Shown here one piece after another: positions 5,744 through 16,117 of a DNA stretch of 24,640 nucleotides (position 1 is its first letter; each line of letters begins with the position of its first letter). The position numbers and the translations under genes were made by a program. The notes under the pieces are model-generated. The model was not told the DNA's origin. It ran no database searches and saw only the letters and a program-made list of their open reading frames with translations. Source of the stretch: Candidatus Heimdallarchaeota archaeon (GTDB taxonomy: Archaea; Asgardarchaeota; Heimdallarchaeia; Heimdallarchaeales; Heimdallarchaeaceae); contig JAAFKJ010000148.1 in NCBI GenBank assembly GCA_021399395.1, positions 1 to 24,640 on the forward strand, in the 5' to 3' direction.

Positions 5744-5853
5744 CTGATTTATCTCCTAATACATCAAATATAGAAATGAGTAGAATAAAAGTATTTGTTG
5801 CTATCTATTGAATAAGATTAAAGTATTTGTTTAATCTAGACAGCAAGATAGTG

Positions 5854-6927
5854 ATGGTTCAAGAAATTCCTCTTTTTAGAGCATACCCAAAACTAGTATC
5901 TGTTCCTTGGGTTTCAGTTGTCAACTCTCCTACACCTGTCCATAAAATGGAAGAATTAACCAGAATTTTAGACAATGGAGAGATTTGGGTAAAACGCGAT
6001 GATTTAACTCATGAAACATATGGTGGGAATAAACTACGAAAATATGAGTTTGTTTTTGCTGATGTTCTAAAAAAAGAAAAGAAGAAGATCTTAACACAAG
6101 GCAGTATTGGAACCAATCATGGATTGGCAACAGCAGTCCATGCAAAGAGATTTGGTTTGAAAACCCATTTATTTTTACTTGAACAAGAACCTTCACCAAC
6201 TGTTCTTGAAAATCTGCTGTGTCATCATTATTTTGGTGCAAAGTTATCTTTATTGAAAAACAAACTTCACAGAAAACTAGCAGTAAAAACAAAGTTACTT
6301 CTTGATAGAAAAGCATACTCGGTTGTTATTGGGGCTAGTTCTCCACTCGGAACACTAGGTTTTGTTAATGCAGCTTTTGAGCTTAAAGAACAAATAGACA
6401 AAAAACTGATACCAGAACCAGATAAAATCTTCATAACTGTTGGTTCTTTTGCTACTTGTGCCGGTTTAGTACTTGGTTTGGAACTAGCACAACTAAAGTC
6501 TCAGGTTATTGGGATTGGAGTAACAGATCCTTCTTGGAGTTCAAAAGAAGCTACTCTAGATTTAGCTACAAAGGCTTTAGAACTTATGAGAAGTAAAGAT
6601 TCGTCTATTCCTGATGTTTCAAAGAAGTTGTCAAAAAGGTTAGTAGTTGATCATTCTTATTTCGGTGGCAAATATGGTGTCTCTACAGAAGAAGCTCTAG
6701 AAGCAATTGAGCTGGCAAAGAAAGATGAACTTAAGCTTGAATATGTTTACACGGGAAAAACACTAGGCGGATTAATAGACTATAGTAGAAAATCAAAAAT
6801 TTCAAAAAATGAAGTGATTCTTTACTGGAATACAAAAAGCTCAGCAGATTTAACTCCGTATGTTAAGGAAATGAAATATCAGGATTTACCAAAAAAGTTC
6901 CACAAATTCTTTGAAGAAGTGCAATAA
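5854..6927 (+). CDS. PLP-dependent D-cysteine desulfhydrase / ACC deaminase family protein
   Basis: WVKRDD...YGGNKLRK (PLP lysine), TNH and VYTGK. The Thr in VYTGK, rather than the Glu of true ACC deaminases, favours the D-Cys desulfhydrase type. ATG at 5854 preferred over TTG at 5827. Confidence 0.88.
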   Translation: MVQEIPLFRAYPKLVSVPWVSVVNSPTPVHKMEELTRILDNGEIWVKRDDLTHETYGGNKLRKYEFVFADVLKKEKKKILTQGSIGTNHGLATAVHAKRFGLKTHLFLLEQEPSPTVLENLLCHHYFGAKLSLLKNKLHRKLAVKTKLLLDRKAYSVVIGASSPLGTLGFVNAAFELKEQIDKKLIPEPDKIFITVGSFATCAGLVLGLELAQLKSQVIGIGVTDPSWSSKEATLDLATKALELMRSKDSSIPDVSKKLSKRLVVDHSYFGGKYGVSTEEALEAIELAKKDELKLEYVYTGKTLGGLIDYSRKSKISKNEVILYWNTKSSADLTPYVKEMKYQDLPKKFHKFFEEVQ

Positions 6928-6953: not shown

Positions 6954-7020
6954 TGTTGAGAATCAGCTTACCTCGAACAATCATAAATCAGACAGGGGTA
7001 ACCAAATCATTTTCTCAACA
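6954..7020 (-). ncRNA. Box C/D 2'-O-methylation guide sRNA (double guide, large-subunit rRNA peptidyl-transferase centre)
   Basis: Minus strand reads TGTTGAGAA-A-[ATGATTT]-GGTTACCCCTGT-[CTGA]-TTT-[ATGATTG]-TTCGAGGTAAG-[CTGA]-TTCTCAACA. It has a perfect 9-bp terminal stem, boxes in C/D'/C'/D order, and 12- and 11-nt guides complementary to conserved 23S PTC sequences. Confidence 0.85.
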
Positions 7021-7073
7021 AATATCAATTTAACAAAAATAAAATAGTGTTTTGGTTTGTTACTTATGTAATA

Positions 7074-7685
7074 TTATTCTGTTTCTTTAACATATTCAGA
7101 CTTTAACATACCAAAATAGAATAACCCAAACCGTTTACCTGCATCAATATAGCCTTCTCTGAAGTGTCCTTCTTTAACGAAATTCAATCTCTCTGCTAGT
7201 TTATAGCTATCTTCATTATTATCTCTTGTAATCAATATTATTTTATATGCTCTTAATTCATCAAAAACGAAATCCATACTTCGTCTTACTGCTTCTGTTG
7301 CTAATCCTTTCTTTGTGTAACCTTGATCAAGGTAATAACCGATTTCAAATGATGGAACTTCCCATTTATTCGGTTCAATCCAGATATTACCAATAAAATC
7401 CTTAGTTTCCTTTGACCAAATTCCCATAACAAATCTAGTTCGATTAATGAAATCTGCAGCTAATGAACGAATGCGGATTTCTGCATCTTCTAAGGATTGA
7501 ACATCCATTGCTTCATCAACTGCTTCCCTTAGAAACTCTCGATTATCATTTCTATCTAGTAAATTCAAAAGCCCCTCCCCATCTCCTTTGTCAAACTTTC
7601 TGATAACAAGTCTATCTGTCTCAATTTGAGTAGGTAAATCCAATAACTGTTTCAACACTTCCTTTTTTTCTTTACTAGATCTCAA
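7074..7685 (-). CDS. GNAT family N-acetyltransferase, RimJ/RimL type
   Basis: IETDRLVIR start, EIGYYL..YTKKGLATEA (motif A), N..S..LAERLNF.KEG. Confidence 0.9.
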   Translation of the reverse strand: MRSSKEKKEVLKQLLDLPTQIETDRLVIRKFDKGDGEGLLNLLDRNDNREFLREAVDEAMDVQSLEDAEIRIRSLAADFINRTRFVMGIWSKETKDFIGNIWIEPNKWEVPSFEIGYYLDQGYTKKGLATEAVRRSMDFVFDELRAYKIILITRDNNEDSYKLAERLNFVKEGHFREGYIDAGKRFGLFYFGMLKSEYVKETE

Positions 7686-16008: not shown

Positions 16009-16117
16009 GCCTCAATGGTGTAGCTCGGCCAATCATTGCGGACTTTCACATGAGAAAGTCCGCGTGACTAAACAGGAATATCCGCAGACCCGGGTTCAAA
16101 TCCCGGTTGAGGCACCA
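16009..16117 (+). tRNA. tRNA-Glu(TTC) with 31-nt anticodon-loop intron, CCA encoded
   Basis: Acceptor GCCTCAA/TTGAGGC-A-CCA, archaeal Glu-type D arm (GTGTAG..CGGCCAATCAT), anticodon stem GCGGA/TCCGC separated by CTTTC plus 33 nt, and T arm CCGGG-TTCAAAT-CCCGG. Confidence 0.9.

Follow-up and report, generated by a model that had tools for sequence, protein, structure and literature searches.

Positions 7020-6954 on the minus strand of the window, the whole analysed stretch of 24,640 nucleotides from Candidatus Heimdallarchaeota archaeon (assembly GCA_021399395.1, contig JAAFKJ010000148.1), are as a whole best explained as a gene for a Heimdall archaeal box C/D sRNA, a reading which is very likely on the sequence evidence. 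The most likely and primary function of its conserved D' guide would be to mark, within the peptidyl-transferase ring of 23S rRNA, the equivalent of G2446 on its 5' side. For the second guide, the D guide, there is about an even chance that in the window's sub-clade it marks the equivalent of C2498 at the 3' side of this ring. The anatomy of the element, the pattern of its conservation, the complementarities, the numbering of the target nucleotides and the protein genes were read directly from the genomes.

Catalogues of C/D guide RNAs come mainly from thermophilic archaea, and Asgard archaea are the closest known relatives of eukaryotes. The host genome is AT-rich (34% G+C), mesophile-like Asgard and 82% complete. 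Its archaeal origin, presumed in the first-pass annotation of the sequence, was confirmed, and the C/D protein set is encoded: the fibrillarin gene (308.9 bits) adjoins the Nop5 gene (229.4 bits) on contig C150, and an L7Ae gene (91.5 bits) was identified on contig C66, with all three matches exceeding the Pfam cut-offs.

Anatomy and genomic setting of the element

The element is located between two convergent genes, in a gap for which the previously given length of 146 nt was found to be correct. Rereading of the minus strand likewise placed the boxes, both guides and the perfect 9-bp terminal stem at every coordinate given in the first-pass annotation. The features are the following:

5827-6927, plus strand: gene for a PALP-family enzyme (PF00291, E 2.1e-32)
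7074-7685, minus strand: gene for a GNAT acetyltransferase (PF13302, E 4.3e-19)
7039-7046, minus strand: TATA-like A/T-rich box, candidate own promoter, about 19-26 nt upstream of the stem
7020-7012, minus strand: terminal stem, 5' strand TGTTGAGAA (UGUUGAGAA), pairs with 6954-6962
7011, minus strand: single A between the stem and box C
7010-7004, minus strand: box C, ATGATTT (AUGAUUU), non-canonical
7003-6992, minus strand: D' guide GGTTACCCCTGT (GGUUACCCCUGU), 12 nt
6991-6988, minus strand: box D', CTGA (CUGA)
between 6988 and 6984, minus strand: TTT, 3-nt spacer from box D' to box C'
6984-6978, minus strand: box C', ATGATTG (AUGAUUG), 3 nt past D' in a K-loop arrangement
6977-6967, minus strand: D guide TTCGAGGTAAG (UUCGAGGUAAG), 11 nt
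6966-6963, minus strand: box D, CTGA (CUGA)
6962-6954, minus strand: terminal stem, 3' strand TTCTCAACA (UUCUCAACA), pairs with 7012-7020

Known archaeal box C/D sRNAs include the sR families of Pyrococcus, Sulfolobus and Pyrobaculum and the Rfam family RF00095 (snoPyro_CD). The element resembles them in the C-guide-D'-C'-guide-D layout, in Watson-Crick pairs at N+5 of both sites, in targets within the hotspot of the peptidyl-transferase centre (PTC) and in a host which encodes the protein set. The spacers of 12 and 11 nt and the total length of 67 nt are within the norms of C/D sRNAs (guides of about 12 nt, 50-70 nt in total), and the internal D'/C' pair is present as CUGA, 3 nt and AUGAUUG. 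It differs from them in the box C sequence AUGAUUU, the box C' sequence AUGAUUG and the long stem of 9 bp. The consensus for box C is RUGAUGA. The first five positions (R-U-G-A-U) and the spacing of the 3-nt bulge relative to the stem agree with this consensus; positions 6-7 are UU instead of GA, and U6 opposes C1 of box D in a mismatch replacing the consensus G-C pair. A7011-A7010-U7009 would be the 3-nt bulge of a K-turn, and G7008-A7007 would make the sheared G.A pairs with box D. The fold energy of the element is unremarkable (z = -1.84).

The TATA-like motif TTATATTTT / TATTTTATT is present at the same distance in all eight same-genus copies, and the remaining flank diverges. It is possibly the sRNA gene's own promoter; the promoter scan used a sigma-70 model, which is not applicable to an archaeal host.

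From this anatomy we infer transcription of the sRNA, assembly of an RNP and methylation of its targets. The terminal stem would join box C and box D into a K-turn, and boxes D' and C' would form a K-loop. L7Ae would bind to both, and Nop5 and fibrillarin would then assemble. In archaea, counting guide bases upstream from box D or D', methylation falls on the nucleotide which is paired with the fifth. The 11-12-nt spacers would thus pair with 23S rRNA, and fibrillarin would 2'-O-methylate the nucleotide opposite this fifth base. For the D' guide, this would be the G2446 equivalent, the same nucleotide as marked by eukaryotic snR38/SNORD1/snoR38, and a D guide acting at C2498 would make the sRNA a 'double guide' straddling helix 89.

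The position between two convergent stops would also suit a conserved intergenic hairpin serving the neighbouring genes, such as a terminator or a site for protein binding, with no RNA gene involved; the 9-bp stem exists on both strands and by itself accounts for a weak reverse-strand match. However, no terminator-like site was found (0), and a 49-nt loop is not terminator-like. Furthermore, paralogues and other-genus copies of the element are located in unrelated gene contexts, in the sister sub-clade the element is found at the opposite end of the PALP gene, and conservation coincides exactly with the C/D boxes and the rRNA-complementary guide. A mere hairpin is considered very improbable.

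Distribution and conservation of the box C/D element

Recurrence in relatives sets the element apart from a chance arrangement. By BLAST, it was matched in 8 of 40 relatives at E<1e-8. Across the order, a covariance model (R1) identified it in 17 of 47 genomes and, within the window's family, in 16 of the 30 other genomes and in all five genera; the same model gave no match among 16 genomes of three sister families. The distribution inside the genus is patchy, with a homologue undetected in 14 of the 24 genomes surveyed. Eight of these 14 genomes have the PALP gene assembled, and with filters off no match was obtained within 1.5 kb of it. The presence of two copies in one genome (G021) was considered and rejected, the two being a single locus divided over two contig ends. 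In the GTDB species representatives, of which archaea are a small minority, the combined pattern of box C, D' guide and box D' was identified at 15 archaeal and 14 bacterial loci. The D' guide also occurs in Thorarchaeota, Hydrothermarchaeota and Desulfurococcales.

Same-genus copies are 76-96% identical to the window's element, with 50-78% identity in the 40-nt flanks. The stem, the boxes and the D' guide are conserved, and the D guide and the flanks are variable. Of the checks suggested in the first-pass annotation, conservation of the boxes and guides in related genomes was thus borne out for the boxes and the D' guide, the D guide being the part that varies. The covarying stem suggested there was not seen: among 18 distinct homologues, compensatory changes were found at 0 of the 9 pairs, and the substitutions comprised four one-sided ones. 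The stem was nevertheless paired in 94.8% of cells over these 18 homologues, versus 38-60% with the partners slid.

In box C, AUGAU is invariant in seven of the eight same-genus copies, and all eight have a U at position 6. The D' CUGA and the C' AUGA are kept in all eight; in other genera and in paralogues, box D' is CGGA or CAGA. Box D reads UUGA in genome G001, and most paralogues from other genera have AUGA there. The core of the D' guide, GUUACCCCU, was identified in 19 of 20 aligned rows, and the remaining row contains GUUACUCCU, in which pairing is retained by a G:U pair.

The D' guide, its predicted 23S target and the eukaryotic snoR38 family

Positions 2-11 upstream of box D' form 10 contiguous Watson-Crick pairs with the 23S segment CAGGGGUAAC, and this match is present in all 23S genes that cover the region, five of five from the same genus and four of four from other genera. 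The first-pass annotation had named the right segment and had assumed an A interrupting the pairing. This interruption did not hold: the 23S of the lineage carries a G at the position of E. coli A2448, so that the 10 pairs are uninterrupted and no bulge is formed. Alignment with E. coli rrlH placed D'+5 on the G2446 equivalent, as had been proposed, and N+5 is a C-G Watson-Crick pair. Genome G004, which has its own D' guide AGUUACUCCUGG, forms 11 Watson-Crick and two G:U pairs on its own 23S. Among shuffled D' guides, 335 of 20000 reached 10 contiguous Watson-Crick pairs on 23S and 16S rRNA. The D' guide has the pairing expected of such guides, a complementarity of 9 bp or more to an rRNA or a tRNA in which N+5 is a Watson-Crick pair, the 9-bp complementarity being that used in the available text of Dennis et al. 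2015. The assembly of the host genome lacks its copy of the D' target, along with the 5' PTC strand and a 16S; searches with RF02540 and RF01959 gave no match, and the 3' end of the 23S was located on contig C21 by motif search.

In the window's family, the 23S gene contains an intron of about 350 nt (an insertion of 335-423 nt) with a bulge-helix-bulge (BHB) motif. The D' target CAGGGGUAAC covers the strand of the BHB central helix (GGGG), the 5' bulge (UAA) and the first base of the inner helix in all eight 23S genes of the family, and the D target is located 43 nt into exon 2. In an Rfam search, the insertion gave no match at E<=5 and no group I or II model. The H89 insertion of the sister family f4 showed no similarity to the f1 intron, and C/D boxes were not seen inside the 23S intron itself. 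In 19 of 20 rows a purine occupies position 12 of the guide, and it can pair with the U following AAC in the unspliced gene and not with the A of the spliced rRNA.

This arrangement would also suit an RNA that is mainly a chaperone of assembly or splicing. The D' guide would then compete with two folds, the BHB of the intron and a local GUUACCCC/GGGGUAAC hairpin, and the guides of the sub-clade would hold the end of exon 1 near exon 2. A comparable competition is known from the archaeal pre-tRNA-Trp intron, which holds a C/D guide and can fold in either of two ways, with the guide paired or with the BHB splice motif formed. There, also, the two compete for the same nucleotides; the guide of the window differs in that it is encoded by a separate gene and would act in trans on 23S. 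Chaperone roles are further proposed for double guides in the available part of Dennis et al. 2015. However, the same D' guide is found in lineages whose relatives have a 23S without the intron (a Thorarchaeota relative), in an older type of paralogue from this family the D guide is directed at 23S position ~862 (G004 numbering) and not at exon 2, and both sites retain a Watson-Crick pair at N+5, which would be expected if they are methylated. A chiefly chaperoning role is considered unlikely, and methylation and chaperoning are not mutually exclusive. Little probability is also given to the wider view of a Heimdallarchaeaceae sRNA in which the invariant D' guide would bind the BHB nucleotides of a conserved structured intron of ~350 nt splitting the peptidyl-transferase ring, the second guide would grip exon 2, the RNP would time or chaperone splicing and refolding, and the same guide lineage would perhaps be the archaeal forerunner of snR38/SNORD1. 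The gene offers a concrete connection, open to testing, between binding of the guide and excision of the intron in the ribosome's catalytic centre.

For a methylation guide of the box C/D type, the closest known families were sought with Rfam, a search which the first-pass annotation had recommended. The best matches are indeed C/D families, but none of them reaches the gathering score: snoR38 (RF00213) gave 31.8 bits (E 0.001, gathering score 45), followed by snoPyro_CD (RF00095) with 19.5 bits versus a gathering score of 45. Since the C/D models of Rfam are family-specific, a sub-threshold score weighs little. Three relatives scored 40.2, 39.8 and 33.5 bits with snoR38, all below 45, and the copy from Hydrothermarchaeota exceeds the gathering score of snoPyro_CD (46.0 versus 45).

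With snoR38/snR38/SNORD1, the element shares a guide in the D' position, GUUA(C/U)CCCUGU followed by CUGA. Guide and box D' align column by column, so that N+5 falls on the same rRNA nucleotide, the G2446 equivalent. The sole difference in the guide is a U in the snoR38 consensus versus the C of the window, which matches an rRNA G here versus an A in the archaeal consensus of Rfam and in E. coli. Own 23S genes were found in 0 of the 5 genomes of non-Heimdall guide carriers; among relatives, a match was obtained in 2 of 13 for the Thorarchaeota genome (one of them Heimdall-like and left out), in 0 of 13 for the Hydrothermarchaeota genome and in 0 of 13 for S141, so that the U-guide/A2448 half of this covariation draws only on the Rfam consensus and E. 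coli. The snoR38 model has 91 positions; the RNA of the window is shorter (67) and has a second guide. According to the available text of the respective reports, snR38 guides Gm2815 in yeast 25S and Gm4362 in human 28S (PMC3511168, PMC5199042), and the site of the snoR38 family in Arabidopsis is Gm2805. In the accessible part of their study, Hoeppner and Poole 2012 trace the snR38/SNORD1 family to LECA and describe no significant similarity of LECA snoRNA families to archaeal sRNAs. Because the similarity is confined to the boxes and the guide, which a shared target would impose anyway, homology and convergence with snoR38 cannot be told apart on this basis. Since the guide shares its sequence, box position and register with that family, the site is well suited to testing whether some snoRNA lineage is older than the eukaryotes.

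The D guide and a further candidate guide in the genome

The D guide forms eight Watson-Crick pairs with the 23S segment UACCUCGA through positions 3-10 upstream of box D; an oligonucleotide for this 8-bp duplex would carry GCUACCUCGAUG. The pairing of the guide core, proposed in the first-pass annotation on the basis of a conserved archaeal sequence, was found in the genome's own 23S fragment and in four of four same-genus 23S genes, and D+5 came to lie on the C2498 equivalent in the alignment with E. coli rrlH, where N+5 fits a Watson-Crick pair. The site is 52 nt from the D' site in the spliced rRNA, and the two predicted targets are thus less than 100 nt apart, as in archaeal double guides. 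In the copies of 'archaeon S141' and of Thorarchaeota, the second guide also pairs with nearby PTC sites (~C2510 and the A-loop), which corresponds to the double-guide pattern described in the available text of Dennis et al. 2015.

Taken alone, the D guide with its eight pairs is one below the 9-bp criterion of the same source. It is quite possible, though doubtful on balance, that only the D' guide is functional and that the D guide is an orphan or has another target (23S ~2303 or 16S ~1233 in G004 numbering, or a non-rRNA), the match at C2498 being coincidental. There are three equal 8-bp matches, the rival ones being 23S 2299-2306 and 16S 1232-1239 (G004 numbering), and 3130 of 20000 shuffled D guides reached eight pairs anywhere in rRNA. 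The D guide is also the fastest-changing part of the gene: at least four versions were found at the PALP locus inside one genus, four further genomes of this genus and every other genus have unrelated guides in its place, and the D guides of the sister sub-clade have no consistent rRNA match. Against this, the core UCGAGGUA is invariant in five of five genomes of the window's sub-clade, although the flanks are 58-78% identical in the three compared, and only 185 of 20000 shuffled guides reached eight pairs at a distance of up to 100 nt from the D' site. Two natural variants bear on the choice of site. In G017, the match at the PTC site is lengthened to 9 bp, and in G001 the changed base is unpaired at the PTC site and paired at the rival 23S site; both variants were judged to favour the PTC site over its rivals. 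A tRNA as the target of either guide was rejected, since the 30 tRNAs detected in the genome gave 6-7 Watson-Crick pairs at best, and at most six for the D guide. The earlier argument that two guides landing on the same loop are unlikely to be chance was judged to hold, with the caveat that the D match is short and has two rivals of equal length.

Both predicted nucleotides had been called known 2'-O-methyl sites, which is true of each somewhere in life, for the G2446 equivalent in eukaryotes and for C2498 in E. coli. Cm2498 of E. coli is made by RlmM, as given in the available text of two reports (PMC3488215; PMC11542601), the latter of which, in the same part, tabulates no equivalent for Haloarcula, yeast, human or Arabidopsis. 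Guidance of this methylation by an RNA would thus be a convergent solution. RlmM modifies the same nucleotide as predicted for the D guide and is a protein enzyme acting without a guide RNA. A functional D guide would provide an RNA-guided counterpart of this bacterial enzyme.

A published catalogue of Asgard sRNAs was not found in a literature search, and a 2021 review (PMC7994747) contains no occurrence of Asgard, Lokiarchaeo- or Heimdall-. A strict regular expression for fully canonical double-box sRNAs gave 0 matches in the 82%-complete genome. Since the Heimdall-group lineage uses relaxed C boxes and no canonical double-box sRNA was found, standard screens of the snoscan type would miss its guides. 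With a looser de novo search, 16 candidates were obtained versus two in the reversed genome; most of them resemble coding-sequence noise, and they were not used. A second candidate sRNA was identified on contig C18, which has the same AUGAUUU box C and forms 10 Watson-Crick pairs and one G:U pair with the 23S segment ACUGGGGCGGU, its N+5 position being presumably the G2251 equivalent in E. coli numbering.

The box C/D sRNA gene and its conservation

A so far uncatalogued but genuine gene for a box C/D sRNA of 67 nt is located at 7020-6954 on the minus strand of the window. As described in the first-pass annotation, it lies in a gap of 146 nt, flanked by the stop codons of two convergent genes, and all coordinates proposed there for stem, boxes and guides are correct on the minus-strand reading.

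Features of the sRNA gene, read from the sequence, and its neighbouring genes
5827-6927, plus strand, PALP-family enzyme gene on one side of the gap
7020-7012, minus strand, terminal stem, 5' strand, TGTTGAGAA, followed by a single A
7010-7004, minus strand, box C, ATGATTT
7003-6992, minus strand, D' guide, GGTTACCCCTGT
6991-6988, minus strand, box D', CTGA, followed by TTT
6984-6978, minus strand, box C', ATGATTG
6977-6967, minus strand, D guide, TTCGAGGTAAG
6966-6963, minus strand, box D, CTGA
6962-6954, minus strand, terminal stem, 3' strand, TTCTCAACA
7074-7685, minus strand, GNAT acetyltransferase gene on the other side of the gap

The flank comparison revealed a TATA-like A/T box about 19-26 nt upstream, kept among same-genus copies, from which the sRNA would be transcribed. 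At gathering thresholds, four tRNAs are the sole Rfam matches in the window. The genome (G000; 2.8 Mb, 201 contigs, 81.8% complete, 34% G+C), of which the window is contig C56, contains adjacent fibrillarin and Nop5 genes on contig C150 and an L7Ae gene on C66. Each of them scores above its Pfam cut-off, and the three proteins would assemble on the sRNA. The host lineage is taken to be Heimdall-group Asgard archaea; in a collection scan, identical or near-identical copies were identified at Heimdall-group loci.

BLAST recovered the element in 8 of 40 relatives (E<1e-8). With 8 same-genus copies as its basis, a covariance model identified it in 17 of the 47 genomes of the order, including 16 of the 30 other genomes of the family (all five genera represented) and none of the 16 genomes of three sister families. 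The distribution is patchy: a homologue was undetected in 14 of 24 congeners, and in 8 of these, where the PALP neighbour is assembled, a search with filters off gave no match. Same-genus copies are 76-96% identical to the window, and their 40-nt flanks 50-78%. The 20 aligned rows, which represent 19 loci (one is split across two contig ends), have in common the stem, AAUGAUU and UGA in the 3' box, and the D' guide core GUUACCCCU is present in 19 of them. Over the homologues, pairing of the stem amounts to 94.8%, but there are no compensatory changes. Conservation is selective and covers boxes, stem and D' guide. An intergenic element that is not an RNA is very improbable; the annotation as a C/D guide RNA holds as observation and as interpretation.

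Three main kinds of D guide occur. The window and four congeners have UUCGAGGUAAG, four further congeners have a variable AUCAUAAGAGG-like form, and AAUUGCAUA is the kind of the other genera, present also in the paralogues that three congeners have. This last kind forms 10 Watson-Crick pairs and one G:U pair with 23S UAUGCAAUU at about position 862, in the numbering of the 23S gene of congener G004. In a sister sub-clade of four congeners (loci L024, L026, L027, L028), the orthologous sRNA is located not in the PALP-GNAT gap but next to the PALP gene on its 5' side, and has fast-changing D guides unrelated to that of the window.

Predicted rRNA targets of the two guides

The genome's own 23S gene is assembled only for its last ~440+ nt, at the end of contig C21, and 23S and 16S genes of congeners were therefore used in its place. 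The fragment, which forms the start of the reverse complement of C21, was missed by an Rfam-based search; the contig breaks inside helix 89.

Positions 2-11 of the D' guide, counted upstream of D', form 10 Watson-Crick pairs with 23S 5'-CAGGGGUAAC-3', a target present in all 5 same-genus and all 4 other-genus 23S genes covering the region. In alignments to Rfam LSU and to E. coli rrlH it corresponds to E. coli 2443-2452, which bears out the earlier placement of N+5, the nucleotide opposite the fifth guide base, on the G2446 equivalent. At the position of A2448, the A of E. coli and of the Rfam archaeal consensus is replaced by G in the 23S of this lineage, and the guide has the matching C. The variant D' guide of G004 forms 11 Watson-Crick and 2 G:U pairs with the 23S of the same genome.

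For the D guide, positions 3-10 form 8 pairs with 23S UACCUCGA and N+5 falls on C2498, as had likewise been claimed. This target was found in the genome's own C21 fragment; the D' target was located in the 23S genes of relatives. Equally long rival 8-mers for the D guide exist at 23S 2299-2306 and 16S 1232-1239; the best tRNA match to the guides has only 6-7 pairs. In G017, a natural variant of the D guide lengthens the match at the peptidyl-transferase centre (PTC) to 9 pairs, and in G001 the changed base is unpaired at the PTC site and paired at the rival 23S site. These two variants favour the PTC site over its rivals.

Among 20000 shuffled D' guides, 335 had 10 Watson-Crick pairs anywhere in 23S and 16S; among 20000 shuffled D guides, 3130 had 8 such pairs anywhere and 185 had them no more than 100 nt from the D' site. 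By these statistics, the D' assignment stands unaided, and the D assignment stands only because the two sites are close together, its core is invariant in 5/5 genomes and the two variants favour it. It is likely that the D' guide directs Gm at the G2446 equivalent, and there is an even chance that the D guide directs Cm at the C2498 equivalent. That only one guide is functional, the D guide being an orphan, is compatible with this reading; with the frequency of chance 8-pair matches on one side and the two variants on the other, it is a possibility of somewhat lower probability.

A 23S insertion whose bounding motif overlaps the D' target

Directly after GGGGUAAC, an insertion of 335-423 nt was identified in all eight 23S genes of the family with both junctions, where it splits the peptidyl-transferase ring.

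L012:4049-4396 (23S gene of G004), 23S insertion; equivalents in L014, L015, L016, L040, L041, L042 and L043

A helix of 4 bp (GGGG/CCCU) bounds each insertion, together with two bulges of 3 nt, UAA and GAA (GUA in G009), and an inner helix of 7-8 bp, in which two pairs covary from GC to AU. For this bulge-helix-bulge (BHB) geometry, the tRNA intron in the window itself (16009-16114) was the positive control. If both bulges are cut at corresponding points, the product is CAGGGGUAAC-AGAGUUGUCG, the uninterrupted sequence of the sister families. The interior has conserved motifs and covarying helices, and an Rfam search of the insertion gave no match. From the bounding helix and bulges, the excision product and the internal conservation, the simplest reading of the insertion, at about E. 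coli 2449-2452, is an intron of BHB type.

The D' target takes in one strand of the BHB helix, the bulge on the 5' side and the first base of the inner helix, so that, at the level of sequence, guide duplex and splice motif are mutually exclusive on one molecule. At position 12 of the guide, 19 of the 20 rows have a purine, which could pair with the U that follows in the unspliced gene; spliced rRNA has an A there, with which it could not. As to the order of guide pairing and splicing, we infer that the sRNA would act once the rRNA is spliced, or on nascent rRNA in which the 3' strand of the intron does not yet exist. A role chiefly as chaperone or in splice timing is unlikely. Of interest is that a target for methylation would at the same time form one half of the motif for splicing an intron in the catalytic ring of the ribosome.

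In the literature found, including the passages of PMC8813620 on intron, 23S and rRNA, there is no description of this 23S intron. The passages of PMC7594248 state that known intronic regions were removed, with nothing further on them, and in the text of PMC6125680 neither 2449 nor Heimdall occurs.

The 23S genes of the sister families f4 (L011, L013), f3 (L099, L100, L101) and f2 (L103) are without this intron; in them, helix 89 is longer by ~180-360 nt, placed between the same two strands of the PTC. The helix 89 insertion of L011, the sole one compared, has no similarity to the intron. In all 23S genes of the family, the strand GUUACCCC just upstream of the D' target (L012:4029-4048) is the reverse complement of this target, GGGGUAAC; a local hairpin of nascent rRNA, in competition with the guide, is thus possible. 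The D' guide is nearly identical to this upstream strand. L043, the 23S gene of G046, spans 4136 nt compared to ~3400 in sister species, and therefore holds at least one further large insertion elsewhere. The tRNA gene at 16009-16114 (plus strand; Rfam 47.1 bits), whose 31-nt intron is flanked by a bulge-helix-bulge motif, is probably tRNA-Glu UUC, judged from the anticodon loop CUUUCA; it was missed by ARAGORN.

Relaxed box C and likeness to known families

A search of G000 for sRNAs with fully canonical boxes gave 0 matches. Two further candidates were identified:

C18, 49 nt from 21748 of the reverse complement, minus strand, candidate sRNA with box C AUGAUUU, D' CGGA and D AUGA
C127, from 7397 of the reverse complement, minus strand, candidate sRNA with box C AUGAUGU and CUGA

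The D' guide of the C18 candidate forms 10 Watson-Crick pairs and one G:U pair with 23S ACUGGGGCGGU, with N+5 on the second G, a site which we take to be E. coli G2251 in the P-loop. The guides of the C127 candidate form 11 and 9 Watson-Crick pairs with 16S, at sites 73 nt apart. Since box C is AUGAUUU also in the C18 candidate, a U in position 6 of box C would be tolerated in this lineage, a relaxed box C of interest within an Asgard lineage. A box D starting with A, as in C18 and most other-genus copies, is able to pair with this U; in the window it is opposite the C of box D, and K-turn and K-loop would form although this leaves a U.C.

In a permissive Rfam scan, the best match was snoR38 (RF00213; E 0.001), with 31.8 bits where the gathering score is 45, followed by snoPyro_CD with 19.5 bits. 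Both are C/D families, and both matches remain under the gathering score. Relatives reach 33.5-40.2 bits against snoR38, and a Hydrothermarchaeota sRNA with the same guide clears the snoPyro_CD gathering score (46.0 vs 45). According to PMC3511168 and PMC5199042, RF00213 comprises plant snoR38, yeast snR38 and human snR38A, guiding Gm2805, Gm2812 (2815) and Gm4362. PMC3511168 traces the family to LECA and reports that none of the LECA families is significantly similar to archaeal sRNAs. The D' guide and boxes of the element align column by column with the snoR38 consensus GUUAUCCCUGUCUGA, and the likeness is limited to the boxes and the target-constrained guide. This aligned register shows a shared predicted function, from which common descent does not follow; of interest is that the element is functionally equivalent to snR38/SNORD1, a LECA snoRNA, which is also its best available match in sequence.

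The pattern 'UGAU-3 nt-GUUAYCCCUG-N-CUGA' was found at 29 loci among GTDB species representatives, 15 of them archaeal (Heimdall, Thorarchaeota, Hydrothermarchaeota, Desulfurococcales, Nitrososphaeraceae and other archaea); the 14 bacterial loci look like chance. A relaxed pattern (N for G before the D' box, D' box as CDGA) occurs in 18 of 400 Asgard genomes, with 0 for the reversed-pattern control. In the S141 and Thorarchaeota versions, the second guides are aimed at ~C2510 and at the A-loop, which fits the 'double guide within 100 nt' pattern and the relaxed pairing criterion of Dennis et al. 2015.
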